Shown here piece after piece: positions 5,400 to 61,213 of a DNA stretch of 64,000 nucleotides (position 1 is the first letter of the stretch; each line of letters begins with the position of its first letter). The notes under the pieces were generated by a model. It saw only the letters and a program-made list of their open reading frames with translations. It ran no database searches and was not told the DNA's origin. The stretch covers positions 40,486,001 through 40,550,000 of the forward strand of contig NC_073389.1 of assembly GCF_028641065.1 (NCBI RefSeq), written 5' to 3'. The position numbers were made by a program, and so were the translations under genes. The DNA is from Leucoraja erinacea. Its lineage: Eukaryota.

Positions 5400-5600
5400 G
5401 CAAGCGGTGGATTGGAGTTCCGGTTTAAAGGACCAACGAGCATCTGGTGCATGTTTCCTACCCTTGTGCGATGATGTTATTGGGTGAAGTTCAGGAAGCT
5501 CCGCCCGCGCGGCAATTTTCACTTTGTTACATTGGTGCCAGAGAACGGTGAATCTTCTCTGCAGTCCGTCATTCATTTCGGTGCACGGCGAGGAAGGGAT
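5400..5600 (+). promoter_or_regulatory. Probable promoter of the Cut8/Sts1-like gene
   Basis: Local CpG enrichment; GC box CCGCCC at 5501; three reverse CCAAT boxes (ATTGG at 5411, 5479, 5531). Confidence 0.5.
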
Positions 5601-5848
5601 AGGGAGGGAAGGGGGGGAAAGGGAAAACAATTACAAGGACTGAAATTTATGAAGAGAAAAATTCCCATCCTCTTCTTCACAATTGCTCACGAGAAGCAAG
5701 GAGCAAAATCCGAAACTTTCGCCGGGAGTTTATTTATTTTTTTTGTTTTATTTTGTTCTTCTCTCCAGCAAGTGGACTTCAATACGCGTCGATTTTGCGT
5801 TTTACTAATATATTTATGGCTCCTGCTGAAAACCTAAGACAAGTGCTG

Positions 5849-5882
5849 ATGGAAATTCCAAACCCGCAGCCTAAGATTGCTG
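5849..5882 (+). CDS. Cut8/Sts1-family protein, coding exon 1 (MEIPNPQPKIA+1 nt)
   Basis: ATG at 5849; donor G|GTACGT at 5883; phase 1 joins in frame to the 7273 exon; lies just downstream of a CpG-rich promoter-like region. Confidence 0.65.
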
Positions 5883-7272
5883 GTACGTAAACCCATGTTT
5901 AAATAGACGCGGAAAAAATAAGGCGCTTAACTGAGACGAGGCGATGGGGGAGGGAAGGGGAACACTCTTGTTAACTAGTTTTAAACACGGTTGAAAGTCA
6001 ATATGATGATCATTGATTTTGAGTATTGCATCTGTTCAGTTAAATGATCAATCTGCACTATTGTCCGAAAAAAATGATCAGTTATGTTTTTATAAAATTG
6101 CTGCTCTACCACGATATTGGCGGGGAGATGAGAAAGCAGTTTCCATCCCGCACGTTCACCCAAATTGTAATGTTTAGCATATGAAATAGAATATATTATA
6201 GTTTAATAGACCCAATGTATGTTATTAATTTATTAGCTGAAATAATTTGAGGATGATGATCATTGCAATATCTTTATTGTAGCAATGGAAGACGCGGGAA
6301 GCGCCAAACGTGAGCCAACAATTGATGGGAATCCTTATTGATTACACTATTGATTAAAAAATATTTATCGGGTTTTTGGATGCGATACTAAATTAAATAT
6401 GTGTTTATATTTTATATGGATTGACATTGATGATTTTATAGTGCGTGGACACAATACATTGGTAATAGTGGCCAGCTGTTGGTAAAACTGACCAGATATA
6501 ATCTGATACAAGCATTGTCGACGCAAAGAAGAAAGCTAGGATAAAATAGATATTATTTCTACTTTAAGCATGAATGCAACATGGGGATTTCTTAAACTTT
6601 TAAAAGCTGACCTTTTGAATAGATAGTGAGACCCCTATAGGCCACATTTCTCATTATACTCATTATTTTCCTAATTTAAAAATGTATACTATTCTCACGT
6701 ACAGTGCATTTTTGGCTGTAGTATACTATATCCGGACAGACAGCCAACAGATAACTTATAAATTGAACGATCCAGCAATAAGCAGAAGTTACAATGTTAA
6801 CGCGGGAGGCTTATACAAAAATCATTCACAAATATTCTTGCATGCAAGTGTTTGCGGTTCCGTGGTGAGAAGAGCATCACTCGTAGTATTTAAATTTGAC
6901 ATATTGCGAATATTAACACTCAGAACTAAACATTTTCAGCAGATCAACGGTGCAGAGGATGTAGTTGGCGGTCTTGAGCAGAGACCTAGAGTTACCCTAC
7001 ACAGGAAGCAGGCTCTTCCACCTAACTCATCCATGCCGACCAAGATGAACCAGCCCCATTTGGCTGCTTTTGGCCCAGAAATCTCTACACCTTTCCTACC
7101 CATCGCATCTACAGCTGTCCCTGGCGGCGTGTTCTATGTATCCACCACCCTCTTAAAAACAAAAGTTGCCCCTCTGGTCCCCTTCCAAGTCCATGTTGCC
7201 TTAGAAAAAAAATGCAGATTCAGTCATTAATTTTGCTTCTTTTAAAAAAAAAACACTTTTTTCCCCCTCCAG

Positions 7273-7392
7273 TCCATCTTCGCAGGACCTATGAAGAAAT
7301 TATGAATTCCACGAGGGCGCAAACACGTTTAACAGCACTTCATGCCAATGTTCCTCCAACATCTTTTCTAAGAATGGAGAACAGCCCAACAG
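7273..7392 (+). CDS. Cut8/Sts1-family protein, coding exon 2 (VHLRRTYEEIMNSTRAQTRL...RMENSPT)
   Basis: Polypyrimidine tract and CAG acceptor (ttccccctccag); donor AG|GTAATT; phase 1 to 1; open frame. Confidence 0.75.
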
Positions 7393-7888
7393 GTAATTGT
7401 TTAATTCAAGATATGAATGTTACATCAGGTTTGTGTGTTTGTGTATACAAACTTTGCTGCAATAAGGTAATGTGATTGGCCGAATGGCATAATTCTGCTC
7501 CTATCAAGTATACTCTGCCATTCAATCATGGCTGATCTATCTCTCCCTCCTAGCCCCATTCTCCAGCTTTCTCCCCATAACCCCCTGACATCTGTACTAA
7601 TCAACAATAGATGTCATCCCCTCTTTCCTATCAGGATCTTGGTCAAAAGTAGTCTTGGTTGGTGTGCTTTTTAGAGCCAACATGCTTGGCTTGTTCCAGC
7701 ATGTAGAGTGAATTGAAATTTGATTTCTGTAATGCTGGAGAATTCTGCAGACGGATCAGCAACTTTGTTTATTATTGAAGATCATTTTGTAATATTTTTC
7801 GTTTATATGATGGGCTATTCCCCCAATAAATTGGGATGTTCACGCAGCAAGTTCTTCAATTTAGCTATTTAATTTGGTACTGCCATTC

Positions 7889-9262
7889 ACGAGACCCTTC
7901 TTCAGACGAGGGGGGGGGGGCAGGAAAAAGAAAGGAAGAGGCGGAGACAGTAGGCTTGTGGGAGAGCTGGGAAGAGGGAGGGGAAGGAAGGAGTAAGCAA
8001 GGACTATCTGAAATTAGAGAAGTCCATGTTCATACTGTTAGGGTGTAAACTACCCAAGCGAAATATGAGGTGCTGTTCCTCCAATTTGCGCTGGGCCTCA
8101 CTCTGGCATTGGGGTGGGCCCAAGCCAGTCAGATTCGGAATGGGAGGGGCAGTTGAAGTACTGAGCCATCAGGTGGATCAGGTTGGTTAGTGCGAACTGA
8201 GTGTAGGTGTTGGGTTGCTGCTGGACATGGGGGGCACGGTATGGTGGAGACGCCCCTCAAATTAAAAATTAAATTAAGGGAAGGTATCCCACGCCAGGGG
8301 GCCACATGAGTGGCACGGGTGGGGGACATTATTTGTGGAAGTGAAAATGTCAAATGGGATTTTCGCACTGTAAACACTGTATATATTTATTACTTGGACA
8401 GGGGCCACAGAGTGGCACGGGTGGGAGACTGTTGGGTGAAATTTGAAAAATGTTAAAAAAAATTGTACTGAAAAAACTTGTATAGTCTCCGAAAATGTCG
8501 GATGAATTTTGTTTTGTTTGAATGGTTCAGGAATTGCATATATTTATCAATGAATAAAGTCTATTTTGAAATAAAAAAAAAAAAAATAAAAAAAAGAGTG
8601 TAGGTGTTGGGCGAAACAATCGCCAAGCCTGTGCTTGGTCTCGCCGATGTAGAAAAGCTTTTTTTTCTTCAAAATAGACTTCATTTGAGAAATAAATATA
8701 TACAATACATGATCCTTACAAAACTTCATCCGACATTCTCGGAGCCTATACATACAATACAGTTTCCCCAAATCACAAATGTATCTCCCTCCCCCCCACC
8801 CTTGCCACTCATGTGGCCCACTGGCATGGTATCCGATGTAGAAAGGTTGGCACCTGGATCTCCCGGTGGCTCAGCACTTCAACTCCCCCTCCCATTCCAA
8901 ATCCGACCTTTCTGTCCTGGGCCTCCTCATTGCCAGAGTGAGGCCCAGCGCAAATTGGAGGAACAGCACCTCGTATTTCGCTTGGGTAGTTTACACCCCA
9001 GCGGTATCGACATCCAATTTCAGATAGTCCTTGCCTTCTCCCTCCTTCCCCTCCCCCTTCCCAGCTCTCCTACAAGCCTACTATCTCCGCCTCTTCCTTT
9101 CTTTCCTTCCCCCCCCCCCCCCCCCCCCCCGACATCAGTCTGAAGAAGGGTCTCGCCCCAAAACGTCGCCTTTTTCCGTCTCTCCATAGATAGTCACCCG
9201 CTGAGCTTGTCCAGCATTTTTGTCTACCTTCGATTTTTCCAGCATCTGCAGTTCTTTCTTAA
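7889..9262. mobile_element. Inverted pair of Penelope-like 3' ends (GIY-YIG C-terminus) with two nested poly(A) retroposon insertions
   Basis: Minus-strand YIGETKHRLGD.F..HL; plus-strand HCQSEAQRKLEEQHL.FRLGSLHP; terminal ctgaagaaggg...aaacgtc motif; nested inserts at 8215-8595 and 8656-8832 with TSDs. Confidence 0.8.
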
Positions 9263-10329
9263 ACATGAATATAGAGGGAATCTTTTTTTGTTTTACTTTT
9301 GCCGCTTTTTTGCTGATGGGAATTTCCCATTGAATGATGGGATAGAAAAGATGCATTTTGCAGAGGATTAGTGTAAAAGTGTGCTTGATGTCCAATGTGC
9401 GGTGAAGTCTATCAAATAAAAATTGAGATAACCAGAAAATCTGCCCTAATGCTGATTGAAGGATCTATTAGTGTTGCAGATAACACTCATTGTCTATGAA
9501 TAGTGCACAGAATCTTTTGTCCAATAAAAAAAATGATTTTGTTATCATGGCTCCATCCAATGGCCCAGGACCTCCTTATTTCTACAAAGAATGGTCATTT
9601 TGTAGTTTGGGTATGTAAATTTTCTGGATTGGTACATGAACCTAAAGCTTACTGACTTGTTAAGAATGTAATCACCGAGTCGAAATCCTGAAGGATTTTC
9701 ATGGCCATATTTATATCCAGAGGTATAATTTCAAGCAGACTATTATTTTATGCCTTTATTAGCTTTACCAATCTTTATTATTTTATCCCGGTGTTTGTAA
9801 AAGACCAACTAAAACTAATATGACAAGCAGATGTAGATTGATATGATGTTGTGGCCATTGGCAGCTATTCATCTTATTGCTTTGCTGAAAGTACACTTTA
9901 TTGTTTTCCAGCGCAAGATTTTTCTGAAGTCTCATCGTTCGCCAGAAGAAAGTTTGGAGCCAGAAGAAGAACATACACCAGTTCATCAAATTTCATATGT
10001 AACAAAAAATCATTGGAAAATGATAGTGAGAAAGGTGTGTGCCTGTTGAATTTGATATTGTATACCATTTTATATGAACCTGAACAGGTTCTACAGAGTT
10101 CATTTTGCATCCATTTACAGATAACTATGTGTTGGCAGTCATATTTCCACACCTGGGATCCAAGTGTACCATGGATATATGATAATGGACATAGAACAGT
10201 TATTTTCATTTTATGATTGGATGTCATATCTCAGATTAGCTCAATGTCAAATATACCAGCATGCAATGAAATTTCTCCTTTGCATGAAGCCCATAGAGTA
10301 AACATTTACGGTAATGATGAATACAAAAT

Positions 10330-12610
10330 TCTGACTGTCCTGTTGGCCTTCTTCTCAAAACGAGCATTAAGTTCACCAGGGAGGGCTGCACTGTAACCAG
10401 TGATGCTGCCTGACTTTACTTTGCTTTGCGGGCAGTTATGGCTTTCGGGCCTTGCCACAGTAGATGTGTGTCTGAATGCATTGTCTTGGCATTCCTGATG
10501 ACTTTGCAAAGATTATAGTGAGGTTTCTTGAACCACCTGGAATTGGTCTTGGCCTTCACCTGGGAATGTACCTCATAATTCATCAATGGTTTCCAATGGG
10601 GAACATTTTGATTGTCTTCTTCAGCACTCCTCTGCGCACTTGCTGATGAAATCAGTCATGGCAGTGGCCAACTCATTCAGGCTGGCTGTTGATTCCCTGA
10701 ATATGGACCAGTTCACTGACTCAAAGCAGTGGGATGTCATCTGTTTCTGCAGAAACAAACTAAAAGATTGAGTTACTGCTGTACGTAGACAGTGTCATTG
10801 GTGTGCAGGGAGGAGAGCAATTCTGGGGGGCATCAGTATTGAGAGTCTGGGTGAAGAAATTGTTATGATGACCAATTCTCAGTTATGCCAGTCAGAAAAA
10901 ACATTTGCAGATATATGCCCCAAGGCCAAGATTCAGGAGCTTTGTGAAGAGTTTATTCGGTATTATGGTGTTAAAGGCTGATCTGTCGTCAATGAATAGC
11001 ATCTACACAGAAATGTGAGATGTTGTATTTTGGGAAGTCTAACATGGGTAGGACCTTCACAGAGAATGGTAGGGCTCTGGTGAGTTTTGTAGAGCAGAGG
11101 GATCTAGGAGTGCAGGTGCTTGGTTCCTTGAAGGCCGAGTCGTAGATAGATAAGGTGGTCATAAAGTCTTTTGACACATTGGCCTTCATCATTGAGTATA
11201 GAAGTTGGGAGGTCATGTTGTAGTTGTGTAAGACTGGTGAGACCGCATTTAGAGTATTGTATTCAGTTCTGGGCACCATGTTATTGGAAAGATGTCAAGC
11301 TGGAACAGCTACAGATAAGATTTACGAGGATGTTGCCAGGATTAGAGGGTCTGAGCTATAGGGAGAGGTTGAGTATGCTGGGACTCTCTTCCCTTGAGCA
11401 AGGTGGATGTTAGGTGATCTTATAGAGGTGTATAAAATCATGAGAGAAATAGATCGGGTAGATGCACAGTCTCTTGCCCAGAGTAGGTGAATCGAGGACC
11501 ATAGGGCATAGGTTTAAGATTTAATAGGAATCTGAGGGGTAACTTTTTTACACAAAGGGTGTTGAGTGGATGGAACAAGCTGCCAGAGGAGGTAGTTGTG
11601 GCAGGGACTAAACCAACGTTTAAGGAACAGTTAGATAAGTACATGGATTGCACAGGTTTGAAGGGATATGGACTAAACGCAGGAAGGTGGGACTAGTGCT
11701 ATTGGGGCAAGTTGGGCCAAAGGGCCTGTTTCCACGTTGTATCACTGTGGCTCAACTTAGACATGGGCATTTTTATTAACAAGGTGATCCAGAGCTTAAT
11801 CATGTAGTGCAAGGGGTCCACCATGGTCCTATTTTCCTTTACGCAAATTGCTAGGCCCTAGATTGTCCAGGAGATTGATGTTAATGTGGACAATACCAAA
11901 CACTTAATTGTGGTCAATATTAGAGCTACCTGGTGGTAGTCATTGAGATCTGTCATTTTTACTTTTCTTGGGGATTGTAATTAGAGCAGTTTCCGTGAGA
12001 GATTCAAGGTGACCATATGACTAGCACATGATTTCGGTATCGGTTCAGAGACTCCATCTGGGCCAACTGCTTTCCAAGAGTTTATCCTTGTGAAAGCACA
12101 TCTGACCTTCAAATCCATTCTCAACCAGTAGAGATATGCCATTGCTAGAGATCCCCCACTTCCCCAATTTGGCCTAATAGCTTGTGACAGTACACAGGCC
12201 TTGTCACAGTTGTCTGGCATCACTTGATTAAATTGAACCTCTAAATTGTTCTGGAATTTTCCTTTGGCATCCCTGATAGCCTTTCACAGATCCTTGTACA
12301 GCCTTGCATCTAGACTTTAGAAGAGTCTTTCCCATTCATTTACGTTTTTGAATAAGATAGATCCCAATTGCCTTTGTCTGAATACAGTCGTCGGCATAAT
12401 TCTTGATGAAACTAGTCATGATAGAGATATATTCATTCAGACTGGAAAAGTTGTCTTGAACATGTTCCAATAATAGACCCTGAAGTAGACCCTCTGCCTC
12501 CTCAGTCCACTGGTGTGTGATTCTCTTCATTGGTACCTTGTGCTTCAATCTTTGTCCGTAAGCCAGCAAGAGCACTGACAGATGATCAGACTGGCCCAAA
12601 TGAAAGTGAT
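10330..12610 (-). mobile_element. Old Rex1/Babar-like LINE remnant interrupted by a CR1 fragment
   Basis: GQSDHLSVLL (endonuclease C-terminus), KAVGPDGV and GELNARFE peptides in minus frames; plus-strand CR1 piece at about 11005-11750. Confidence 0.6.
11005..11750 (+). mobile_element. CR1-type LINE 3' fragment
   Basis: [15 protein letters not shown]...[21 protein letters not shown] peptide. Confidence 0.85.
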
Positions 12611-12831
12611 TCTGATCATCCGCTAAATATAATCTGTGCCGAGAGTTTCTTGGTTTGATGGTGGTTTTATTATTTTATGATTTCTTCTGACATGTTGTTT
12701 GCAGGCAGACCAAATGTGTACACCCAATAAATATTAAAGTTGAATCATTTTTTTAATGTTGTGAAATTGACTATTTAAAAAAAAAAACCTACCCATGAAA
12801 GAACGGACAGAAATTTAACTTTTTATTTCAG

Positions 12832-12962
12832 AATCTCCTTTCAAGAAACAACGACTGCATTTTAAGCGAGGTGTAGATTTGGAAGTCAAACTAAACCACC
12901 TACTATCATCTCAGCTGGTGCAGACTTTCGTATTGCACAGATATCCTGCAATTGATGATGAG
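12832..12962 (+). CDS. Cut8/Sts1-family protein, coding exon 3 (ESPFKKQRLHFKRGVDLEVKLNHLLSSQLVQTFVLHRYPAIDDE)
   Basis: ttttatttcag acceptor; GAG|GTATGC donor; phase 1 to 0; basic NLS-like stretch followed by an L..L...QL......HRYP pattern like the Cut8 dimerisation helices. Confidence 0.8.
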
Positions 12963-13133
12963 GTATGCCAGCTGACTACCTGTCACTAACTGAATAAACC
13001 ACAGTCTAAAAAATTTTGAGCCCAACCAGTCTCACCAGAGCTTCCCTCTAATGATCAAATTAAAAATGCACGGTAATTTGTGCTGTTGGGAGTTCGAACT
13101 ATATCAAAACCAATGCATTTTTTTCTGAAACAG

Positions 13134-13295
13134 GACAGGAACCTGGTTCTTCCGTCATTGATCTTGAAATTTGCTCAAGAACAGCTGGCATTAACCAAAA
13201 GAAGTGTTTATCGATCAATACCACGATGGCGCTTGGGATCCAACAGAGATGCCTACTGTTACCGCAAAGCACATAATCATCTTCGCATTTACAAG
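13134..13295 (+). CDS. Cut8/Sts1-family protein, coding exon 4 (DRNL...KRSVYRSIPRWRLGSNRDAYCYRKAHNHLRIYK)
   Basis: ttttttctgaaacag acceptor; AAG|GTTTGT donor; phase 0 to 0; S.P....S..D.Y.Y.K...HL motif. Confidence 0.8.
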
Positions 13296-14957
13296 GTTTG
13301 TATTTTCTGATAAAGATTGAATGGAAGGTCAATAGGGTGTTTGTTTTTCCTACAATTTTCTGTATATATACTATGTATGTTTCAATTGATATTTGAAATC
13401 ATGACCAGGAATGCAAGATCTTGATTTACCATTTTAAGATTGTTCTTTGCCCAAATATAATTATACACCCATGGGCATTTGACAGATTGACCAAATTACT
13501 TTATATTTATGTTGAGGAAGTTAAAATTAACCCTTCCAAATATTTGAAATCTTAAATGGGGGAAAAAAACAAACAGTGGAAACACTCAACACTGCTTGAC
13601 TGCTGCCTGAACTGCTATGTGATTCCAGTATTTTCAGTTTTTATTGGGATTATTACTGAACACATTCAGTGGAAATATTATATATTTTATTATTTTAGGT
13701 AGGTATGCTTTAATGGAAGTATTAGATTAGATGAGAATAAGGCATCAACATTTGTACTAAACTTGGTCTTGACAAGATGAATAAATAGTGAGACAATTTA
13801 GTTCAATGTGGCTCTTCCAAAAAGAAACCTCTGCGGGGTTGCAGAGCGATTTGCTTTCATCGCCTTGCATTGTGGTGAAGAGCTTGCTTGTTTTAGTTCT
13901 AAGTTTGTTTTTTTGTTGGGTACATAATCTATTTTATCCAAACAGGATTAGTCTGAAGTGATGTTCTGGATCTCTTTACCTTTCATTTCTTTTGAAGATT
14001 GTAAAAAGCAAATTTCTCTGGTACTTTATCAAAGTTGTGTCTTCGCCCACCATTCAAAACTTAAGACTTGACCATAAGCAGCACAATATCCCAAATACAG
14101 CCTGATTTGTTTTGTCTGTTTTCAATAATAGTTATAGTTTGGCATTCTATCTACTTTGCAATTTTTCAGTCCAAAATGCTGGCAATATTTCACCCTTATC
14201 CTTTGTGGATTTTCTAACTCTCTGAATCCGCGGTGTACCTTGCATTATTACATTGTATTTTTGTTTTCTAACTGCTTAAACAAATAATTTAATAACTCTC
14301 TCGTCTCTTGGTAGCACACCCAATGATTTGAATTTAGTTATATGTTATTCCAACTGCCTGAATGCATAAATAAAATTCAATACATTGGGTTCCAATCTTT
14401 AGGGTGTGTGGTGGGGGGTTCACTCCAGCTTTAATGTTTACAATGTATCTTCCCTTGACCCCACCACCCCAGTTTGTCCAGTGTTTACATTCATATGTAA
14501 TTGGTTATTTCCAGGAACCAAACCAACAATTTCCTCTTGCTGCAAGGTCCAAAAGCCTTGCTAGTTTAACATTTGAATTAAATGAAACAATCTATTCCTC
14601 CTTCACAGGTATGGTCTCAACATCCTGATTTTAAGCAACTGAAGGAGAAGAAATTGGGAACCTATTTTATCTGGTTCAAATGCAGCTACTGATTGAGCCA
14701 GAGGCATGTTTTCCTACATGGAAAAGTGCTGTCATGTTCCGATTGGCTATGTGAAATGTATTCAAATCAACTGAAGTGACTTTGAAAATTTTATGATAGA
14801 TTGGGTTCAATTGGCTTTGGTAAAATTGTAAATGATCCCTAGTGTGCAGGATAGTGTTAGTATACAAAGTGATCGCTGGTTGGCGCAGAATTGGTGGGCG
14901 GAATGGCCTGTTTCCACGTTGTATTTCTTAACTAAACTAAATTTTGTTTCTTTGCAG

Positions 14958-15184
14958 AGAACATGCCTGGAACAAGGAAAGCTATTATTGCAAGCAGAAC
15001 TCTGGGAGACTGCCTTAAACTACATACTGAATGCGTGGAGGTACACGAGTGAACTTCCACAGTGGGATAATAGTTTCCATAATGAATGTACACAACAGTG
15101 TTTTGCGGTTTTAGCTGTTCAGTGCTTAACTGCTTTGCAACGAAGCTGTCTGGCGTTGGAGAAGTATAAACAACTAAGGAAAAG
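14958..15184 (+). CDS. Cut8/Sts1-family protein, coding exon 5 (RTCLEQGKLL...W...AW..TSELPQWDNSFHNECTQQCFAVLA...)
   Basis: ttgtttctttgcag acceptor; AG|GTAAAT donor; phase 0 to 2; contains LPxWxNxxHN, the hallmark motif of the Cut8/Sts1 family. Confidence 0.88.
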
Positions 15185-15258
15185 GTAAATTGCTTGTACA
15201 GAGATGTTAAGAAATTAAAATAATTGATTTCTGGAAGTGGGGTTGAAGTCCTCTCCAG

Positions 15259-15543
15259 TTTAGTTAAGAGATGCAGCTTGGAAATAGGCCCTTCGGCCCA
15301 CCGAGTCCACACCGACCAGCGATCCCCGCACATTAACACTATCCTGCACACTAGGGACAATTTACAATTATACCAAGCCAATTAACCTACAATCCTGAAA
15401 ATCTTTGGAGTGTGGGAGGAAACTGGAGATCCTGGAGAAAACCCACGCAGGTCACGGGGAGAACGTACAAACTCCATGCAAATAGCATCCATAGTCGGGA
15501 TCGAACACGGGTCCCTGGAGCTGTAAGGCGCCACTGTGTCGCC
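15259..15543 (-). mobile_element. tRNA-derived V-SINE (HE1-like)
   Basis: Minus strand: GGCGACACAGTGGCG head, B-box GTTCGATCCC, V-domain GTTCTCCCCGTGACCTGCGTGGGTTTTCTCC...CCTCCCACACTCCAAAGA, TAAAC-type tail. Confidence 0.8.
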
Positions 15544-15880
15544 TACTCATAAACTATTAATTAAAAAGAAAATTGAATGTCTGGCATGAAAAATAAGATT
15601 GACCTTGTTTCTCCAAATGCACTTGCGTCTCAGGATATGGGTTTGGAAAATCTTAGTGCATTTTGTGAGGTGGTGGGGTGGAATCGTCAAGTCAACCCTC
15701 TAATGCATTTTGTTTTGAAGTAGCTGATAGTAGTTTGAAAACTTGAATAAAGTACCAATTAACTAACATTTTGTGCATAATTTAAAAAATGACTTGAATC
15801 TTTTCTCAACATCATGGATGAGGGGATTGGATAATAAACTCACCTTGTAAACCTTGGTTGGTATTTTAAAACTTTGTTGT

Positions 15881-16745
15881 AGAATGCAAGCCAGTTATCT
15901 ATATAATGCTAAAGTTCAAAAAGCAAAGATCAACCTTTTTTTAGTTGAGGTTGAGATTTGCACTTTTGTCTTTAATAGACAAAATCTCCAGAATGTTTGG
16001 TTGTAAAGTGTATTGTAGAAACTAGGACGTTTCTAAGTTCCGACCCAGCTGATGGCAACTTGACCTGAGCTTGACCTTAGGAAAGAAAAGTTGACCAAAA
16101 CTGTACACAATACTCTAGATGTGGTCTCACCAGAGCCCTATACAATTGCAGAAGAACCTCTTTACTCCTATACTGAAATCCTCTTGTTATGAAGGCCAAC
16201 ATTCCATTAGCTTTCTTCACTGCCTGCTGATGTGTGCAATGTTGTGACAAAACTTTGTTAAGTTGATGAAACATGGGGGGGATGACATAACTCAGGAAAC
16301 CTGCTGGAATAAATTTTTTAGAATGCAAGCCATAATCTATATAATGCTAAAGTTCAAGGCAAGATCTTTTTTAGTTGAGGTTGAGATTTGCACTTTTGTC
16401 TTGAATAGACAAAATCTCCAGAATGTTTGGTTGTAAAGTGTATTGTAGAAACTAGGACGTTTCTAAGTTCCGACCCAGCTGATGGCAACTTGACCTGAGC
16501 TTGACCTTAGGAAAGAAAAGTTGACCAAAACTGTACACAATACTCTAGATGTGGTCTCACCAGAGCCCTATACAATTGCAGAAGAACCTCTTTACTCCTA
16601 TACTGAAATCCTCTTGTTATGAAGGCCAACATTCCATTAGCTTTCTTCACTGCCTGCTGATGTGGCAATGTTGTGACAAAATTGTTAAGTTGATGAAACA
16701 ATGGGGATAGACATATTAACTCAGGACCTGCAGGAATATATATTT
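15881..16745 (+). repeat. Tandem duplication of a unit of about 430 bp (15881-16319 and 16320-16745) containing a CR1 fragment
   Basis: The central ~280 bp is identical between copies (both encode [13 protein letters not shown]...[11 protein letters not shown] on the minus strand); the ends differ by scattered indels. Confidence 0.9.
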
Positions 16746-17019
16746 TCACCTGCATAAGACCTTTTCTAGGCATATCTTCATATCAAGGCAGATGCATTCA
16801 TTCATTTCTAAAAGTAATCTAGTTACTATAATTTTGCTGTCTGAGTTTGCTGAAGTGCTTCATCAACAATGAATATGGGATTTGGTGATGATAACATTGT
16901 TGGTTTGACTCTGGCACTTAGTAGCTGAGTAACTGAGAGAAGGGAGAATACAATTGCAATTTACATGTTTTAAAAAAAAACTTTGAACTATGATCTAACA
17001 ATTCTTCTTTCTGTTTCAG

Positions 17020-17140
17020 ACTTAGAATTGCATATACGCAAAACAAGCTGATCAAACCCTGTCTTGAAGAGATGGAAACTATGCTTGTAGTCTTGGAATG
17101 CGGTTCTCCAGGACAAAATCAATCTTGTCTAAGTCCTTAA
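17020..17140 (+). CDS. Cut8/Sts1-family protein, last coding exon (RLRIAYTQNKLIKPCLEEMETML...CLSP*)
   Basis: ttctttctgtttcag acceptor; phase 2 continues the frame to TAA at 17138-17140; total CDS 795 nt = 264 aa. Confidence 0.8.
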
Positions 17141-27089: not shown

Positions 27090-28283
27090 CAGGTGCACAA
27101 CCTTTTATCCGGTGTTCCAGAAACCGAAAAGCTCCGAAAACCGGCCATTTTTTCCAGATGTCGTCTGCGCACCAAAGCTCGCGTTTGGCGCCAAACCTGA
27201 CCCAAAACGACCCACGGTCAACCCAGGTCTGTACTACTGTAGCGGCTGCCTCCTCCCTGGAGACCGGGAGACGCTTAAACATCTGTAAATCATTGCTTAA
27301 ATGTTAGTCAGTTAGTTTGGAGGGCTTTTATGTGAAGGGGGGTGAAGGGGTAAACTTTAATTCTTAGTCCCCTACCTGGTCGGAGAGGCGGGGAGCGGTC
27401 AATGCCTTACCGGGTCGCTGTGCAGTAAGCTCCGCAGCGCTGTGGCCGGTGGGGCAGCGGGCGGCGCCAGTTGTAGCTCCGACCCCGGCAACTCTACCCC
27501 TGGCTGCGAGGCGCTCCAAAAGCGGCCCGCGCCGGCCGGAACAAGCTCCGCGAATTCGTCAGTCGGCGACGTCGTCGCAGCGCTGGGATACCAGCGGGGT
27601 GCGGGCAATGCCTTACCGGGTCGCCGTGCGGCAAGCTCCGGAGCGCTGTGGCCGCCGACACACAACATCGCGGAGCGTCGCTGGATTTGGAGCCGCGCAG
27701 CCAGGGGTAGAGTTGCCGGGGTCGGAGCTCCAACCGCGCCGCCCGCGGCTGGACGGAGCCCCCAGCTCCGCGGCTCCAAAAGCGACGCTCCGAGAATGTT
27801 GGAAGAAGGCGGCAACAGCGCTCCGTTGCCGCACGAACCACGCTGCGACCAAAGATCCTATAGCGGAGCTTCTCTAGGATACATCCCGACTTCTCGCTAC
27901 GTCCGGCCGCGGGCCGCGCTGGATTTGGAGCAGCCAGGGGTAAGTTTTAGCCACAACCGGCGCCGCCCGCGGCCGGACGGAGCCCCCAGCTCCGCGAGGT
28001 TGGGAGTCGCCGACCAGGTAGGTAGGGGGACTAAGAATTAAAGTTTCCCCCTTCACCCCTACACCACCACCACCACCACATAAAATCCCTCCAAAATAAC
28101 TGACTAACATTTATGCAATGATTCTCCCGGTCTCCGGGGAGGAGGCAGCTGCTCCAGACTTTTCAAGCCGCCCGCGCTACCTACCTAATCTACGCTAAAA
28201 ATCTTCCATTCTGAAATCCGAAAATGTCCGAAATGCGACAAGTGTCTGGTCCCAAGGCTTTCGGATAAAAGGTTGTGCACCTG
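27090..28283. mobile_element. Non-autonomous Tc1/mariner (Tigger/pogo-like) DNA transposon with a GC-rich interior
   Basis: Perfect 22-bp TIR CAGGTGCACAACCTTTTATCCG; TA TSD at both ends; internal nested inverted arms. Confidence 0.9.
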
Positions 28284-49846: not shown

Positions 49847-50059
<213 letters not shown>

Positions 50060-50821
50060 TAACTATGTATCATAATTACTTAAATTCATGGAAGATGCAT
50101 CTCCACAAAAGCTGGTGTTTTTGATAGAATTCAATTAAATGAATTTGTTTTTCAATCTAGGTTCCCAACATCACAGAATCTTACAGCACAGAAACGGGTC
50201 CTTACAGCCACCCTAATGTCATGCTAATCCTGTTTGCTGGCATTAGGCTTCTCTCCCTCTTTTTTTTTCCAATCCGAGTACATATCCAAATGCCTTTAAA
50301 CCATTGCAACAATATCTGTCACCAATACGTCCTCTTGCAATTCATTCCAAATATTCACCACTCTTTGTGTGGAAACTTACGTTCAGATCTCTTTTGAATT
50401 TATGCTGTCTTACCTACACCTGTCCCCTTTTGTGCAAAACCTCCCTTTCTTGCAAAATAGATTCAGCCAATCTGTCCTAGCCCTCATTCTTTATATTTCT
50501 AAGCCATAATTTTGTAAAGCCCAGCTTCCTACTTTCCAATGAGAATAAACTCAGCCGATCCAATCTCTCTTTTGACAACAGCCCCCATTCCAGGCAATAT
50601 CATGCTGAATATCTTCTGCAGTAAGTCAGACAAATATTGGAATTGAATGAATTTTTGAAATGGGAAATTTTACCCCTCAAATTGTTTTGGTATAATTTTG
50701 TGACAATTTATTTACTACAGTTTATGATTTTCTAACTTAATAATTTGCTGGGTGGGTGGGTGACATATTTTGAACGGTTAGATAATTTAAAATGAGAAAT
50801 TATGAATTTTGTTTTTTTTTT

Positions 50822-52070
50822 AATGAATGAATGAATAAGTTTATTGGCCAAGTATGTACACATACAAGGAATTTGCCTTGGTGCTTTGCTTGCAAGTAAC
50901 AACACGACATACAGTAAACAATTGAGATTAATACATTAAAACATTAAGAATAAAACATTATAGGTTAAACATGTGAATGAAATAAAATACCAGAGCAAAA
51001 GGAGGCTACAGACTTTTGTTTATTGTGTAGAGCTACCGCTCATGGTAAAAACCAGTTTTTATGTCTGGCCGTGTCGGCTTTGACAGTCCGGAGTCGCTTT
51101 CCAGAGGGATGTGAATCAAAGAGTTTGTGGCCAGGGTGAGAGGGGTCAGAGATGATCTTACCCGCTCCCTTCCTGGCACTTGCAGTGTACAGTTCGTCAA
51201 TGAGGGGAAGGTTGCAGCCAACAAGCTTCTCAGCTGATCGAACGATTTGCTGCAACCTCCGGATGTCGTGCTTGGTGCCAAACCAGGTCATGACGGAGAA
51301 GGTGAGGACAGACTCAGGATGGCAGTATAGAATTGGACCATCGTTGCCTGCGGCAGATTGTGTTTCCTCAGCTGCCGCAGGAAGTACCCTCTGTTGGGCC
51401 TTTTTGACTGTGGAGTCGATGGTGGCACCTCATTTAAGGTCCTTGGAGATGATGATCCCAAGGAACTTAATAGACTCCACAGATGTGACTGTGGTGTTGT
51501 TGATGGTGAGGGGAGGGGGAGTTCTCCTAAAGTCTACTATCAATTCCACTGTCTAAAGAGAATTGAGCTCTGGGTTGTTACAAAGGCATCAGGACACCAG
51601 CTGTGTCACTTCCTGTCTGTAGGTAGATTCCCCATCCCGGATCCGTCTAATCAGGTTGTGTCATCCGCAAACTTGAGAAGCTTCACAGAGGAATCTGTGG
51701 AGGTGCAGTCATTGGTGTAGAGAGAGTAAAGGGGAGGGGAGATAATGCAGTCTTGCGGTGCTCCTGTGCTGAGGGTCTGCGGGTCTGAGATGTGCTTTCC
51801 CAGCCTCACATGCTGCATCCTGCCTGTCAGGATGTTGGTGATACACTGACAGAGGGGTTCAGGCACAGTCAACTGGGAGAGTTTGGAGTGTAGTAACTCT
51901 GGCACAATGGTGTTGAATGCAGAGCTAAAATCCACAAACAAAATCCTTCCATAGGTCCCCTGGCGGTTTAGGTGCTGGAGGATGAAGTGCAGGCCAGGTT
52001 GACTGCGTTATCCACTGATCTGTTGGCCCGGTATGCAAACTGCAGAAGGTCCAGCAGGGGGTTTGTGATA
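50822..52070 (-). mobile_element. Rex1/Babar-type LINE, 3' 1.2 kb with RT and a (CATT)n tail
   Basis: FVDFSSAFNTI.P..L..KL...GAPQ.C.ISP.LYSLYTNDC...KLLKFADDTT. Confidence 0.9.
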
Positions 52071-52647
52071 TTTTTATGGCCCACATTGAATCCAGAATTT
52101 ATCCACTGCTTTCATAATATGTTTTAATAGGATAATTGTATTGCAATTTATATTCAATAAATTCTAATAGTGACTTGAAGAAAAATATATTTTCTGTGGG
52201 GCATTTGTTAAATACCTCAATCCCCCCCCCTCCCGTATTGGAACGATTGTCTTGGATATATCACCTTGACAAACTATTCTAAAATTGGGTACTTTGTTTT
52301 GACAACTAAAATATATTTTCAAATGCATTTTAAAAGATATTCATTGTGATGTTCATACATTATACTTTATAATATAGGAAGTGGTATGTCTTAAATAGTG
52401 CATTAATCTTTTGTGCTGAATACAATGGTGAATTGCCGTAAGACTTTTGAATCTGGCTAGATGAATTAAGTAATCCAAAAAATGGAGTATTACAATGTTG
52501 TCGTGTAATTAATCAGAGATGTCTTAAACTTATTTCACTTAATTTATGGCTTATACCTGATAAAAAATACAACCCACAATCCATTATTTTCTTTAAAAAG
52601 CATTTTTAAATGTGTTGCCAAGAAGCTATGATTAACTTTTAGTTTAA

Positions 52648-52818
<171 letters not shown>

Positions 52819-53414
52819 TAAGTGACTTTAAAAAAAATATTTTAATTGTTATGATTAGGCTCACTTTACATTTGGATATTTGTAATGCCATATTGGTATA
52901 AAACTGCTGTTTCTAGTTGATTTTGATTTGCACTTTAAACTTCTTTATTATAAAGGAGTATTTGACTTGCATACATTTCTTAATTCCTATATATACATTA
53001 CATTATTAGTTTCTATTTAAAACAATGCATTATTATGTACTTATAGCAAATTATTATATTGAAAATTACAGACTAATATTAAATTTGATTCATCTTAATT
53101 CTGAATATTATCCTTATGTTGAGCCACATAATTTGTGTACACTTGAAGCTTCCCATTTGTCCTTAAATTTAATCTTTTTCACCGTAAGGCATTGTTAAAA
53201 TTTCTATATTAAAGAAGATACACTGATGAAAAATATATATTTTTAATGGGTTTTCTCTCCATGATTTGCAATGCAATGCACTGTTGGCAGCCATCAGTGC
53301 CTGCCTTGGCCCAAATTATAGAATTCCCAATCTCTTTATGTGTTTCCTCCTTTACTACTGCTCCTTAATATCTCCTAATAGACAATAGATGAAGGTCTTC
53401 TTCTTTGTTCCCAA

Positions 53415-53830
53415 TTTGGCCCTTTGAGCCAGCACCGCCAATCACTGTGATCATGGCTGATCATCCACATTCAGTACCCCGTTCCTGCCTTCTCACCATA
53501 TCCCTGACTTTGCTATCTTTAGAGCTCTATCTAACTCTCTCTTGAAAGCATCCAGGGAATTGGCCTCCACTGTCTTCTGAGGCAGAGAATTCCACAGATT
53601 CACAACTCTTTGGATGAAAAAGTATTTCCTAATCTCTGTTCTAAATGGCCTACCCCTTAATCTTAAACCGTGGCCCCTGGTTCTGGACTCCCCCAACATC
53701 AGGAAAATGTTTCCTGCCTCTAGCGTGCCCAATCACTTAATAATCTTATATGTTTCAATAGGATCCCCTCTCATCCTTCTAAATTCCAGAGAATACAAGC
53801 CCAGCTGCTCCATTCCATCAACATATGATA
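53415..53830 (-). mobile_element. CR1-type LINE 3' end
   Basis: SRTRGHGLRLRGRPFRTEIRK.FF.QRVVNLWNSLP. Confidence 0.88.
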
Positions 53831-54026
53831 CATTCAGATTTGGTGTCAGATTTTGTTTCATTTTCTCTGGTGCCTTTGGACATTACATTCCATTAAGCGT
53901 AATATATAAGCAGAAGCAGTAATATTAGTCAGAAACATGACATTTCCACAAAGCTCCTCTGTATATTTACAGTGCTCAATGTTGCATTCAATTTGCTAAT
54001 TTACAAATCCTCCCTTTTCTCCCCAG

Positions 54027-54073
54027 AGAGATTGCATTATCCCAAGAAGGAGAATGTAAGGAGGAACTCATTC
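54027..54073 (+). CDS. TBC1D23: TBC1D23 exon 7 (EIALSQEGECKEELI)
   Basis: 47-nt exon with a strong pyrimidine-rich acceptor and a GTAAGT donor; phase 2 to 1 bridges exons 6 and 8. Confidence 0.9.
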
Positions 54074-54169
54074 GTAAGTATGCCCAATTAAAGTTTTTCT
54101 GAATTAAACTTGCATATTCAAACTATAAATCTAATATAATATGTAATTTTTTTTAAATCATGCGTATAA

Positions 54170-55115
54170 AAGACACAAAGTGTTAGAATAACTCAGCGGG
54201 ACAGCCAGCATCTCAGAAAAACATGGATAGATATTGCTAGGTAAAGGAGGTGTAAAGGGGATGGACGTTCATGGTAAAAGATGAGGTAATAATGGCCTAG
54301 GAATTGAAAATTATCAAAGAGTTGAAGGGAACGTGAGGTGCGTTGGATGTAGGTCGGAAGGGACTGGCTGGGGGATAAGCTGGAATCAAGGTATTTGGAG
54401 ATGTGTTCTATGGGGCAGGAGCAGGCAGGAACAATTGAGTCTGCCGGGGAAATAACGTTTGTGTATTTTGGGAAGGAGATTGATGCAGGGAGTACAGGGC
54501 TGTGGATCTGTATGGTTGGAGGCTGTGGGGAGAAGATCATAGAAACATAGAAAAATAGGTGCAGGAGTAGGCCATTCGGCCCTGAGCAAGCACAGCCATT
54601 CAATATGATCATGGCTGATCATCTAAAATCAGTACCCCTTTGCTGCCTTTTCTCCATATCCCTTGATTCCTTTGGCCCTAAGAGCTAAATCTCTCTTGAA
54701 AACATCCAGTAAATTGGCCTCCACTGCCTTCCGTAGCAGAGAAATCCACAGATTCACAACTCTCTGGGTGATTAAGTTTTTCCTCATCTCAGCCCTAAAT
54801 GGCCTACCCCTTATTCTTAAACTGTGGCCCCTGGTTCTGGAAATCAGAGGTGATGAAATCGGCAACAGTTTGGAAGAGGATGACCTGGTGTTCGTCTGTA
54901 GGACCATGATCAAGCGGTAGGTACGAAGAGGTGTCCAAGAGTTGGTATCTGGCCTCGGCATGGTAGAGATCAGTCTGCCAAATTAAAACGGCGCCTCCCT
55001 TATTGGTGGGTTTTAATATTTGGATTGTTACTGAATGAACTGAGGACTGTGCATTCAGGGAGGGTGAGATTGGAGTGGACAATGGGTGTGGAGAAATCAA
55101 GCCAGTTGATGTCAC
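54170..55115 (-). mobile_element. Penelope-like RT N-terminal remnants with a nested CR1 tail (54538-54840)
   Basis: KP.NKGGAVLIW.TDLY.AEA..QL.DTSSYLPLDH.PT and IV.ACSCP.E.ISKYLDS.LSP peptides. Confidence 0.75.
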
Positions 55116-56767
55116 ACCAGCGACTAAAATAGGAAATGTTCAGAATTTTGTGGTGCTTTAAGAGAGATGAATTTCTGTTTCGTATATTTTCCCTTGCATT
55201 GTATTATGAGTATAGAACTAGTTTTCTATTACACTTGTACTTCAAGCACTGTTTCTTCTGCAGTTAGCTGATTTGTCACAGCATTAATGGTTTGACTATC
55301 ATGCAAATTAGACTTTTGCCAGAATGTTTCCTTTGAGTGTCATTGATCGGCTAATTGCTGAGGCAGAGAATTATTCACATGATGCTGACCTGTTATTAGC
55401 TGTCTGCATAATACAGGTTTAGCTCTTCCACAGGGAGATATTGAAAGTAGTTTTCTTTAGATCGATGCGTAATTTCAATTTTAGACTTGCTTTTAAATCC
55501 ATGTTGGCCAGAAATTGTAACGAGTCAAACCTGTATTTCCCCCTATGGCTTCTGGGATGAAGGATTTTAGTTACGTGCTCAGACTGAAGATGCTGGCGGG
55601 GTTCTCCTTGGAACAGAGGGGATTCAGAAGGGATTACGAAGGATCCATAGTTGACAGAGAAAAGCTGGTTGGGGCTTCAAGACGGAGAGGATGTTGAATG
55701 AATGAAATTGATATAAGATTTGAAGTGTCTTGAGGAAAGGAATTTAGAATCTGGAAAGAACTACTGGGGTGTATTGAAGGCAGATTTAGTCGTGATGTTT
55801 AAATGAGAGCTGGATATGTCTTTGTAAGGATATAATTTGCAGGGCTGCAGGAAAAGTGTAAGATAGAAAGATTAACTGGATTGCAATTGTACAGAGCTGC
55901 CACAACAAGGTTAGGTCAAATGGACACTTTCCACGTGAAATCGGCTGTGTGGAATGTAATGGTGAGTAAATACATCTGACTGCACTTATTTTCAGCTAGC
56001 AACTCTGTGGTGTTTCACACCAGCACATTGCATCATGAAAATCAGGAGAAAACATTGGGGATCAAATATGGAAGCTTCCCGTTGCAACACTAATGGACTC
56101 AATGTTGAGTCGACTGGTGAAATTCATTCGTCCAAAGCTAAGGGATGCTTTTTGCCGATAACACTACCCCATCCATTAAGTAAATTCAAGTAATTTGTTG
56201 GTTCTCCTAATTAGACCCGAACAGAAACGTCACCTATCCATGTTCTCCAGGGATGATCCCTAACCCGCTGAGTTACTTCAGCACTTTCTTCCAGCAATTT
56301 GGTTTTTGCACAAGATTCCAGCATCTGCATTCTCTTGTGCCTCCACTATTTTTCCTGTCAGTTACTTCAGAAGAAGTTCAAGCTTAAAATTGTTAACTCC
56401 CTGCAAGTATTTTTTTTAATTTTACGAATAGGTACTTTAAAACTTTTTAAAATCTATTTTTGAGTTGTCTTTAATTATTTGTTTTATGATTGAAATTTTG
56501 AGCTGCTGATTCAACTGTTGCAATGAATATGTATGAAATCTGCCAGGTGTATGCCATAAATATTTAAGTAGACTTAAGCAGTACCTCTCTTGATTTATAA
56601 TTAAGGCCAATGCAAATGTATTTATTACATTGTTTGTTTGGTTCATGCCGGTGTGACGTCAATAGGTCCACATCACTACAAAACCCCATTGTTGTAGGGA
56701 TTTCGTGTTGGTTTATCCTTTTCCTTTTTTGTTGTCCGAATGTGTGAGATCATTGCAGTATGCTTAA

Positions 56768-56890
<123 letters not shown>

Positions 56891-59142
56891 TGAAAATCAA
56901 GTAATGGGGGCTTTTGATAGGTAAATGTCAACTAAGGATACAAACAAGATTCAAGTAAGGCAGATTTCCGTCAAATAATGTGCATGTTTTTTGTAAAAGA
57001 AAGAAATCATCAACGTTAAACCAATAGTTTGCACTTTTCAATCTGCAAACTATTTGAAAATATAAGAATATGGGAAAACAAGATTTTTTTGCTATGTTTA
57101 AAATTAACCAGAGTTAAAATGCAAAATGCTTTCCATCACAACAAAAGTATCTTGAGTTTGTTTGAGAAAGTGGGCCATGCTTTCATCTAAAGCCAAAATA
57201 TGAGAAATGATAAGCTGATATCAAAAGATCGGAGACCATTGTAATGCAGACATGGATGTCAACTGTAAATCAAACTGTAGTGTGCCCTCTGTCTCCTTTG
57301 GTACTTCAAGCATCTTAGGTTGTTCCTCTTATCTTCCTTTACATTTACAATTTTCTCTCTCCCAGCAAAAATACAATTAAAAAATTCTCCCCAAGATAGC
57401 CCACATTCCCTTCTTATCTTTTGCCTCCATGCAAACGTGCTACCTGTTTAACTTTACCACCTCGATTTGCTTTGCTACTCCCATCGTCTCAAACACACGT
57501 CCACTTCCAATCACTTCTCTTTGTCATTTTCCACCCTAATTCTCCTTTTTCCTCTCCACTCTTTTCTAATTCCTCCCCCCCCCCCAGATAAGTGCTCTCA
57601 CTTCTATTTTGAACCCGAACCATGCATGTGCCTCTCATTGCCATGGGACATGGACAAGTGTAGCTCTATCATGGTAAACCTTCTTGGATAAATTCATCTG
57701 TCAAACTATATTTTGTATTTGGTGTCTTTGTGTTTTCCAGTTGTAGAGGATCAATGACTGCTCCCATTACAGCCAATCCTTAGGTAATGATTAGAACCAT
57801 TGTGGAGACTTGGATGGCTCATGGGGAGAAGAAAAGGCGAGCATAGTTTCATATAAAATAAGTAATGTATAGGGAATAAAGTAATTTGTATATCGTAACC
57901 TCACAGTTTGAAGACAATTTTCAATGGTTATTTAATGTTCATTAGAAAATCCTTGTCTCTCTCATGTGGCTCGGAGTCATGCAGCTGAACCTTTTTTCAT
58001 TCACAGCAGCCTTGAATCATGTGGAATCTGAAGCCAAATCTTAAGTGCACTCCCATGTAACAGAACATCACTAATTTTGAACCATATTAGCAGGTCAATA
58101 ATTTTGCAAGGATTAAATTATACAAGAGATAGGCAGATTATTAGCATTGGATTAGGTTAAAAGAACACTTTTCTATTTATATGTGTTTTAGCAGGTATTT
58201 TAGCTACTAGATTACTTTTAAAATAGACTCTGTTAGATTTGATTTTTCTGTCAGTATGCATAGAGCATGATCCTATAAAAAATGAACCACATTTCCAGAA
58301 AAAACTTGATAATGTTTTGCAGGGCAGATGCTGATAAGCTCATAAGACGTAAGAGCAAATTAGGCCATTTGGCCCATCGTGTCTGCTCCACCATTCGATC
58401 GCGGCTGATCTATTTTTCCCTTTCAACCTCATTCTCCTGCCTCTCCAAAACCTTTGACACTCTTACTAATGAAGATCCTATCAATCCCCACTTTAAAAGT
58501 ACCCGATGACTTGGCACCCTCCACCATTTGTGGCAATGAAATCTGGCTAAGAAAACTCCATATGGATAAAATCCATCTCCAATGTCTAAGATAGAATCAT
58601 GGATTTTTTTATCTCTATAGTTTCAGCCGATAGATCATGCAACACTTCCCTCGTGATTCCATTAAGCTAAGAACTTGGATCATGTGCTGGTATCTCTGGA
58701 GAACCTACAACTATTACTCAAAAGTAAGGATTCTGCTGGGCCAAGACAGATTCTGAGTGTTGTTGCAAATGCCTGTTATTGGGGTACCGCAAAACAGAGC
58801 TTTATTCTATATCTCACCTTTAACTACCTTGTTCTGACCACAAATTCAAAAAGTGAAATTATATCATTATTTTTCTGCCCTGACTTCCCTTATTTTAATA
58901 AACATCAAAATTCATAACAAATGACTAATAAAGAATTGGACATTTTCTTTTATCGAATAGCAACATTTTTAAGGAAAGTGGAAGTCTTCCTTGCATCTTG
59001 ATTTGTAATCTCCAAAGTTTAAGTTGTTTTCACTTTTCCAGTGTTTTTTGTGAATCATATGTTCTATACGACCTCCAGTTCAATTGCTAATATTTAGCAG
59101 CTGCACAACTATTGCTGTATAGCTGTTGACAGCGATTGTTAA

Positions 59143-59334
<192 letters not shown>

Positions 59335-59919
59335 TGAATAGTGTTAGTGAGTAAGGGAGGAAAGAACAAAAGGGAAGGTCAGATAGTACTGAAGGTGCTT
59401 GTGCAAATATCAAAAGAGATTATGATGATATGTAAAAGTAAATGGAACAATTAAAAAAAGCAAAAGATAGGTTAAGCAGACATTAATTGGAAATGCCAGA
59501 ATCATTGCAGGAACTGCTGTTCAAAAAAAATCTATTCATTATAGTTTGATGGCACAAAACATCAAAAGATGATGCATTACTTTTGCTGTTTGATTGTATA
59601 ATTTTTATTTAATGACCTCACTTGTTTAAATGAAAACAGATTCTTCACAACCACAAACATTTCATCTTGCCCTAAACCATAATTGTATTCAGTTTTGCAT
59701 TACCACACACAGAGGAAAAGCAATAGTTTTGTTGGCTTAAAAATTTACAACAGCTTTATTAACCTCCGATTAGATATTTGCTTTACAGTTGCAGGATGAT
59801 GTGATAGTTTGATAAAATTGCATTGAGATATCAATATTATAAAAATACAATGGAACTATGAAACAGTAAATGCTGGTACCACTCTGGTTCAGCAACATCA
59901 GTGGGGGAGAAGCAAGGTT

Positions 59920-59979
59920 ACTCAATGATCTTTCCTCGTGACTCAATGATCTTTCCTCGTGACTCATTGATCTTTCCTC
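59920..59979 (+). repeat. 21-bp minisatellite, about 2.9 copies
   Basis: ACTCAATGATCTTTCCTCGTG repeated. Confidence 0.9.
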
Positions 59980-60049
59980 AGAAATAAGAATGTTTAGATA
60001 AAAAGATGGCATCATTTAGTATTGGGATTCTTTAGTATATAGTAAGTAA

Positions 60050-60220
<171 letters not shown>

Positions 60221-60997
60221 TAAATGTAAAGTATTGGATAAATGTATTTATAGCATACATGTACGAAGGTTATTTATATGGGGAGATTTATTGTGTTTTA
60301 TTTTTGGATTCCTTATTGGGAGTTTCTAGACAATGTGAGATATTTGCCTGCCTTGCAGGTTCAATTTCCATTAGATTTCACGCAGGGGCTCTGTTACTGG
60401 AAAGTTTGGAAGGAGCTTTTAAAGGAACCTTTGGAAATTCCATGAATCAGCACATAGACATATGGACTAGGACAGTTCTAAATTAAAAAAATTAAACCTC
60501 ATTGATCCTTAGTAAGGTTCTGTTGGGACATTTTGTACTGTTTTGGACTCAAGGGAATTATTTCCTGGTTTTGATCATCAAGTTAAGGAAACGATCTCAG
60601 CGCTAAACTGAATTTTATTTCAGACAAAATGTCTGCTTCAATTTTTAATATGTTGAGGATGGATAATATAAATACAGCGTAAAGGCAGTGGGCATATGAC
60701 TAGCAAGCCTATAAACTGGATTTTTGTTTTTCATTTGAGTATATGGTAGTTGAGCAAAAGTGGTAAATCTGTTTATAAAAAATAATTATATACATTTCAG
60801 AGTTATTTGAGATCACAAATGTATTATCAATGGATGGTGATTTTCCCAAAGAACTTTGTAAAAATTAGTCATTTTCTTAAGCTTCATAAAGGAAACCTGA
60901 AATTAACGCAACCACAATTCAAATATGTTTTGTATAAATTTTTGGACTAATTTTCATCTTTATGTAAAATGCACCGCAATCTGAAATGTGTTCGTAA

Positions 60998-61213
<216 letters not shown>

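Follow-up and report, generated by a model that had tools for sequence, protein, structure and literature searches.

The stretch of DNA analysed here, a 64,000-nucleotide window of contig NC_073389.1 from the skate Leucoraja erinacea, carries on its forward strand a seven-exon gene that a first-pass annotation assigned to the Cut8/Sts1 family of nuclear proteasome tethers, an assignment borne out by a Pfam profile, a PDB sequence search and the predicted fold. The coding exons have AG/GT ends and matching phases, and join into 951 nucleotides encoding 316 amino acids with one terminal stop (TAA at 17140). The first-pass annotation gave six exons and 264 residues. Its picture of an intact multi-exon gene with GT-AG introns in matching phases stands, and the motifs it quoted are all present in the window on the + strand, but exon 3 and the ATG at 5816 had been missed; starting at the ATG at 5849 without exon 3 rebuilds exactly its 264 residues. 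It also anticipated that such a protein would be annotated only as uncharacterised, as is the case for an annotated skate protein, 'uncharacterized LOC116980433 [Amblyraja radiata]' (316 residues; P0001 below). Found using exon 6 as query, P0001 differs from the window product at 3 of 316 residues and matches all seven exons in the skate genome. The features of the gene are:

5816..5882, + strand: coding exon 1 (residues 1-22), from the first in-frame ATG at 5816; placed by frame and GT donor, and matching P0001 residues 1-23
5837..5863, + strand: destruction box (D-box)-like motif R8-x-x-L11-x-E13-I14-x-N16, a predicted degron for the cyclosome, or anaphase-promoting complex (APC/C); fits the consensus
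7273..7392, + strand: coding exon 2 (residues 23-62); AG/GT ends, phase, and RNA contig X5 record 7
9912..10034, + strand: coding exon 3 (residues 63-103), absent from the six-exon model; joined to exon 4 in an RNA contig
12832..12962, + strand: coding exon 4 (residues 104-147), with KKQR (12843-12854), which resembles a nuclear localization signal (NLS), and the larger part of the predicted dimerisation module of three helices
13134..13295, + strand: coding exon 5 (residues 148-201), where the six-helix bundle begins; includes a highly conserved loop
14958..15184, + strand: coding exon 6 (residues 202-277), core of the six-helix bundle
17020..17140, + strand: coding part of exon 7 (residues 277-316), including the stop codon
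17141..18180 (end approximate), + strand: AU-rich 3′ untranslated region (UTR); RNA contigs to 18122, read depth beyond

Transcript and gene structure

Splicing was followed in contigs from runs X1 and X5, which are taken as RNA by inference, no matching run being on record as RNA. Exon 3 is joined to exon 4 in X5 record 10, exons 4, 5 and 6 are joined in X1 record 3, and exon 6 is joined to exon 7 in X5 record 12; the contig pieces differ from the window by 0 to 2 letters each and also cover the 3′ UTR, where poly(A)-signal hexamers were found by scanning near 18079 and 18159. The confirmation by RNA that the first-pass annotation called for thus extends over exons 3 to 7, while the joins between exons 1 and 2 and between exons 2 and 3 are not among the contig joins listed and rest on splice signals, frame and P0001. 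In the raw-read runs X21 and X24 the exons were sparsely covered, and repeats within introns dominated the reads. Exon 3, at 123 nucleotides with phase 1 on both sides, can be skipped in frame and is missing from two other chondrichthyan annotations (P0003 and P0008), so an isoform that skips it may exist; no join of this kind was seen among the contig matches listed. The part of the protein that it encodes is a poorly conserved linker, predicted to be disordered (predicted local distance difference test, pLDDT, <50; conservation 0.24).

Upstream of the start codon the 5′ UTR extends to at least ~5660, as judged from stranded reads of run X21 over 5660-5790. A 62-codon frame from an upstream ATG (5649-5837) runs across the main start in a different reading frame and might limit translation of the main frame, and a pyrimidine tract with an AG at ~5769 could be a 5′ UTR acceptor. 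Three CCAAT boxes (5411-5531), together with sites resembling E2F and CHR elements, suggested a cell-cycle promoter, but 14 such triplets occur in the window and the idea was set aside. The gene is single-copy in the genome except for a broken 230-base duplicate of exon 4. This copy (L004:4682-4910, contig C13, ~200 kb downstream) is 92% identical, frame-broken, and includes the start of the following intron, with no other exon copied nearby.

Family membership, fold and range

Several lines of evidence place the protein in the Cut8/Sts1 family. P0001 matches Pfam Cut8 (PF08559) with an E-value of 1.8e-21 and 77.3 bits (cut-off 26.2) over profile positions 27-238 of 241, and Cut8 is the sole Pfam family at E up to 0.1 in the complete 316-residue protein. 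Exon 6 alone reaches E 1.2e-11 (45.1 bits, cut-off 26.2) and exon 5 alone gives a weak match (E 0.043); all seven fish proteins scanned (7/7) pass the Pfam cut-off. Against the PDB, a profile built from fish proteins only (A1) found S. pombe Cut8 as its sole match, but at E 0.17. A 14-row profile (A2) that adds basal ray-finned fishes and three invertebrate deuterostomes returned, from 177,635 PDB sequences, Cut8 (3q5w) as the only significant match (E 4.2e-11), in an alignment that runs collinearly from the basic cluster across the bundle.

An AlphaFold2 model built on A2 has a disordered N-terminus, three short helices of low confidence (120-124, 129-138 and 146-151; pLDDT 45-61) that are collinear with Cut8 by sequence, and six confident helices forming a bundle at residues 153-304 (pLDDT mostly >90). 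In Foldseek, Cut8 was the only match at E <0.001, and in a wide structural search of 48,161 chains Cut8 (3q5w) ranked first (Z 16.0, root-mean-square deviation, rmsd, 1.9 Å over 139 residues; next Z 11.8). The profile search and superposition that the first-pass annotation proposed thus gave a significant match to Cut8 and no better match to another family. Atlas agrees with the assignment (score 0.94), and an Atlas search without PF08559 returned nothing at 0.9 or above. On these profile and model grounds we regard membership of the family as secure. The layout also resembles that of S. cerevisiae Sts1 as described in part of PMC10808114, with a disordered N-terminus carrying an NLS, three-helix and six-helix domains, a short half-life and a length similar to that of the skate protein; the likeness is one of described layout, no Sts1 sequence having been compared.

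The first-pass annotation proposed retention in cartilaginous fishes alongside akirins. The gene is indeed kept there beside akirins, but it is not special to these fishes and occurs across ray-finned fishes and many invertebrate phyla. The best 120 of 162 matches in a profile search comprised 105 named rows (12 cartilaginous and 93 ray-finned fishes) and 15 without a name, and a second profile, which missed 5 of its own 14 rows, gave 35 matches (12 chondrichthyan, 14 ray-finned, one brittle star and 8 without a name). Orthologues occur in sturgeons, gar, bowfin and teleosts. An index-free search returned 323 clusters at E up to 0.001, of which 150 were listed, the 50% clusters being able to hide members; among 20 that were looked up the names include a hemichordate, amphioxus, a brachiopod, a priapulid, an annelid, a coral, a horseshoe crab and insects. 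A comparison of 140 representatives with a panel of named sequences gave 21 whose top score was to a fish, in every case a teleost. In a quick tree of 100 core domains, made without fungal or ZSWIM rows and weak at its deep forks, the 21 fish rows form one clade (Shimodaira-Hasegawa-like approximate likelihood ratio test 100) that branches as the species tree does, which indicates that the gene was inherited from the jawed-vertebrate ancestor with vertical descent among fishes. No tetrapod, lungfish, coelacanth or lamprey is named among the matches listed, in searches of limited sensitivity, and the gene was likely lost from the lobe-finned and land-vertebrate line.

Coexistence with akirins rests on first exons. 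Two akirin-like first exons (L002:1501-1674 and L003:1340-1526) were located in the same genome, on contigs C5 and C26, using a pattern that we take to be that of akirins; one of them gives E 1.9e-19 against Akirin-2 in the PDB.

These observations contradict a current statement in the field, since a gene of the Cut8/Sts1 type persists beside akirins in cartilaginous and ray-finned fishes and in many invertebrates. A passage of a 2026 paper says of Sts1 that 'no homolog exists in vertebrates' (PMC12979645), and part of a 2023 paper places its homologue beyond yeast only in D. melanogaster (PMC10520889); the absence of a mammalian orthologue, as given in a passage of PMC9218506, is not contradicted here. 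The portions available of PMC8961600, PMC13465156, PMC6532418, PMC11513537 and PMC11982566 mention no fish homologue, and PMC8698790 contains none of the relevant terms. The surprise is lessened by public databases, in which fish proteins already carry a precomputed Pfam Cut8 hit, and NCBI names some invertebrate members 'tethering factor for nuclear proteasome' (Lingula, Acropora). Our literature searches found no paper on fish Cut8 or on a D-box in Cut8; older papers may list fish homologues. Budenholzer 2020 is said to describe a widely conserved family without tetrapod members; were that the case, specialists would already know of its presence in fishes, and only the two points of analysis that are new here, the D-box-like motif and the loss of the NLS in teleosts, would remain so.

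N-terminal motifs

Relative to S. pombe Cut8 (PDB 3q5w, 3q5x), with which the basic cluster, three-helix module and six-helix bundle are collinear, the skate protein has ~95 more N-terminal residues, and these include the D-box-like motif. The D-box consensus as given in part of PMC5717348 is RxxLx[D/E][hydrophobic]xN, and the skate motif fills all five consensus positions, within a segment (residues 1-25) of pLDDT <50; after it come the invariant residue K20 and a conserved RR[ST]Y block. In A2, R8 and L11 do not vary from sharks to amphioxus and a hemichordate, and over 22 fishes conservation is 0.78 in the block at residues 8-33, 0.70 in the bundle and 0.24 in the linker. Because the earlier model started at 5849, it lacked the arginine and leucine of this element, the most conserved motif. 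Counted in the first 70 residues of near-full-length fish proteins and of non-fish proteins of at least 290 residues, with shorter rows and rows not starting with methionine left out, RxxLx[DEQ][ILV] occurs in 114/117 fish proteins (shuffles mean 2.35, max 11) and 27/68 non-fish representatives (mean 0.99, max 5), and it is scattered across many invertebrate branches of the quick tree. A KEN box was found in neither set of N-termini (0/117 and 0/68). We predict from sequence that the motif is an APC/C degron. S. pombe Cut8 begins a few residues before its basic clusters, so the N-terminal extension is absent there, and its turnover is reported to run through Rhp6/Ubc2-linked ubiquitylation, in contrast to the APC/C degron predicted for the skate.

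Invertebrate Cut8-like proteins are of the same family and size, many with a D-box-like N-terminus and with an NLS before the core; the Drosophila Cut8 protein itself was not identified among the invertebrate matches. Among the invertebrate members (within P0021-P0165) a second conserved motif, SPxExxIxxR, occurs in 41/68 (shuffles max 1) together with many S/T-P sites, and fishes carry a different block in its place. Some cnidarian-type members start MxxMKDI, a D-box-like core without the arginine.

The basic NLS pointed out by the first-pass annotation is present as KKQR in the skate and in most chondrichthyans but is lost in teleosts. In S. pombe Cut8 it is the second basic cluster that lines up with KKQR; the first has no conserved counterpart in sharks. 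The pattern K[KR]x[KR] is found in the N-terminal part of 10/11 chondrichthyans, 7/7 non-teleost ray-finned fishes and 41/44 non-fish proteins with an anchor (24 of 68 were dropped for lack of one). A bipartite signal formed through exon 3 (KK, 12 residues, KKQR) is present in skate and sawfish and not in sharks, and was set aside as not general. A cyclin-dependent kinase (CDK) site beside the NLS was likewise rejected, being present in 4/11 chondrichthyans only; the full CDK-type site occurs in 42/44 non-fish proteins and in 4/11 chondrichthyans, 1/7 non-teleost ray-finned fishes and 4/102 teleosts, so that it is mainly invertebrate members that carry many such sites. Sts1 has a bipartite NLS and ubiquitin-free degradation, unlike the fish protein with its one conserved basic cluster and predicted ubiquitin-ligase degron.

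Possible roles and genomic surroundings

The reading we favor, at a probability of about one half, is that the gene encodes a standalone, likely short-lived Cut8/Sts1-family adaptor that delivers 26S proteasomes to the nucleus or holds them there, and that a predicted D-box would mark for destruction through APC/C. A Cut8-like protein of the fly recruits proteasomes to the nuclear envelope, as stated in a passage of PMC5748218 citing Takeda and Yanagida 2005, and from this we infer that the fish protein is an adaptor or tether for 19S-bearing proteasomes; that cartilaginous fishes retain the nuclear import pathway, as the first-pass annotation held, would follow by the same analogy. As in Sts1, the six-helix bundle (residues 153-304) would bind the proteasome, and the yeast proteins suggest that the three short helices (residues 120-151) would dimerise and KKQR would bind importin-alpha. 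Rapid turnover, ubiquitin-free in yeast Sts1 and common to all three known adaptors, may have been handed to APC/C in animals, in which case the adaptor would disappear on exit from mitosis or in the nucleus in G1, following delivery. It would work alongside akirins, which are binders of the 20S ring, and would not replace them. AKIRIN2, as described in parts of PMC8961600 and PMC12979645, shares the job proposed for the fish protein, with an NLS and a cargo-binding part and a short lifetime, but it is unrelated in sequence and fold and binds the 20S alpha ring through a C-terminal SYVS, with which 0/189 Cut8 family members end.

A bolder extension, speculative and rather improbable in our estimate, makes animal Cut8 an APC/C-coupled adaptor, destroyed by or docked on APC/C through the D-box, that provides fishes with a second, cell-cycle-timed route for 19S-bearing proteasomes beside AKIRIN2. 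Loss of that route toward land vertebrates would explain why human cells need AKIRIN2. The presence of the gene in fishes itself replaces the contrast of yeast using Sts1 and animals using akirin by coexistence followed by probable loss, the D-box-like motif offers a concrete link from proteasome placement to APC/C, and the fish system makes it testable which adaptor carries which proteasome form, and when.

A number of observations weigh against a conserved import adaptor with an APC/C degron. The structural match is mainly to the bundle (Cut8 residues 70-216), with a Foldseek whole-chain rmsd of 11, the dimer helices are of low confidence (pLDDT 45-61), and identity to S. pombe Cut8 is just 14-18%, so the surface used for binding may differ. 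K[KR]x[KR] is found in 1/102 teleost proteins (P0013-P0017, P0166-P0267), in which the dimer region is also reshaped while the N-terminal block and the bundle are kept, which is hard to reconcile with a conserved adaptor for importin-alpha unless the role passed to a different signal. Akirins are present in the skate genome, so the adaptor job may be redundant, and human cells are described in a passage of PMC12979645 as strictly dependent on AKIRIN2. A passage of PMC10897318 places a Cut8-like domain also in ZSWIM4, so the fold can serve other ends. With regard to the degron, the fish counts are of kin, 41/68 non-fish representatives lack the strict pattern, the asparagine at motif position 9 is common in chondrichthyans only, and RxxL motifs are frequent by chance.

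The teleost changes, the low identity to yeast Cut8 and the akirin first exons in the same genome would all be accommodated if the protein were a true Cut8 orthologue with a shifted job, a cell-cycle-regulated helical scaffold, proteasome import having been taken over early by akirins. The lack of any sarcopterygian name among the matches listed is also as expected of a dispensable gene. Yet the NLS is kept in chondrichthyans, basal ray-finned fishes and most invertebrates, the fly homologue is reported to recruit proteasomes, and the bundle and loop are strongly conserved, which together leave the shifted job a serious though tentative alternative. Conservation of the block at residues 8-33 beyond the needs of a bare degron raises a different prospect, that the D-box is a docking site or pseudosubstrate through which the protein links APC/C-coactivator to the proteasome or sets the timing of APC/C activity. 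The SPxExxIxxR motif and many S/T-P sites of invertebrates, and the need for S. pombe Cut8 in cyclin B and securin proteolysis noted in a passage of PMC11513537, point the same way, and docking would supply a physical basis for that role. However, the KEN box is absent, known pseudosubstrate inhibitors use several motifs (PMC5717348, in part), the invariant lysine beside the motif fits an ordinary substrate, and fission-yeast Cut8 has no room for the motif; we therefore consider it unlikely.

The RxxLxEI block might instead be another linear motif, such as a non-classical import signal or a kinase site cluster, in a plain Cut8-type adaptor, given that it is basic, is kept in the teleosts that lost KKQR, and has A, T or E and not N at position 9 in most ray-finned fishes. 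The positions conserved as far as invertebrates (R1, L4, acidic 6 and hydrophobic 7) are nonetheless the coactivator-binding half of a D-box, and this makes a different motif quite doubtful. Most improbable by far is that the gene is a decaying pseudogene, in the face of an open frame, spliced RNA and conservation across fishes, or a truncated offshoot of a ZSWIM4/5/6/8 gene. ZSWIM4, a large SWIM-domain cullin adaptor, is described in part of PMC10897318 with a cut8/STS1 domain, and a ZSWIM8-TPR cluster appeared at score 0.79, a lead only; but the Pfam scan of the skate protein gave no SWIM or ZSWIM family, the complete protein lacks both the SWIM zinc finger and the long C-terminal repeats of ZSWIM4/5/6/8, no ZSWIM exon matched in the skate genome at E up to 10, and standalone relatives of the same size occur in corals, brachiopods, arthropods, echinoderms and amphioxus.

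Exons with RabGAP-TBC and rhodanese matches lie downstream at 49847-61213 on the + strand, as expected of TBC1D23, whose adjacency the first-pass annotation had noted. The searches placed CDC50-family exons on other contigs and found no CMS1; both are uninformative on synteny. A CpG-rich island at ~27250-28000 may be the promoter of the TBC1D23-like gene. Within the Cut8-family gene, intron 6 contains a near-identical tandem duplication of ~450 bases (~15870-16290 and ~16320-16720) that overlaps a high-copy repeat.

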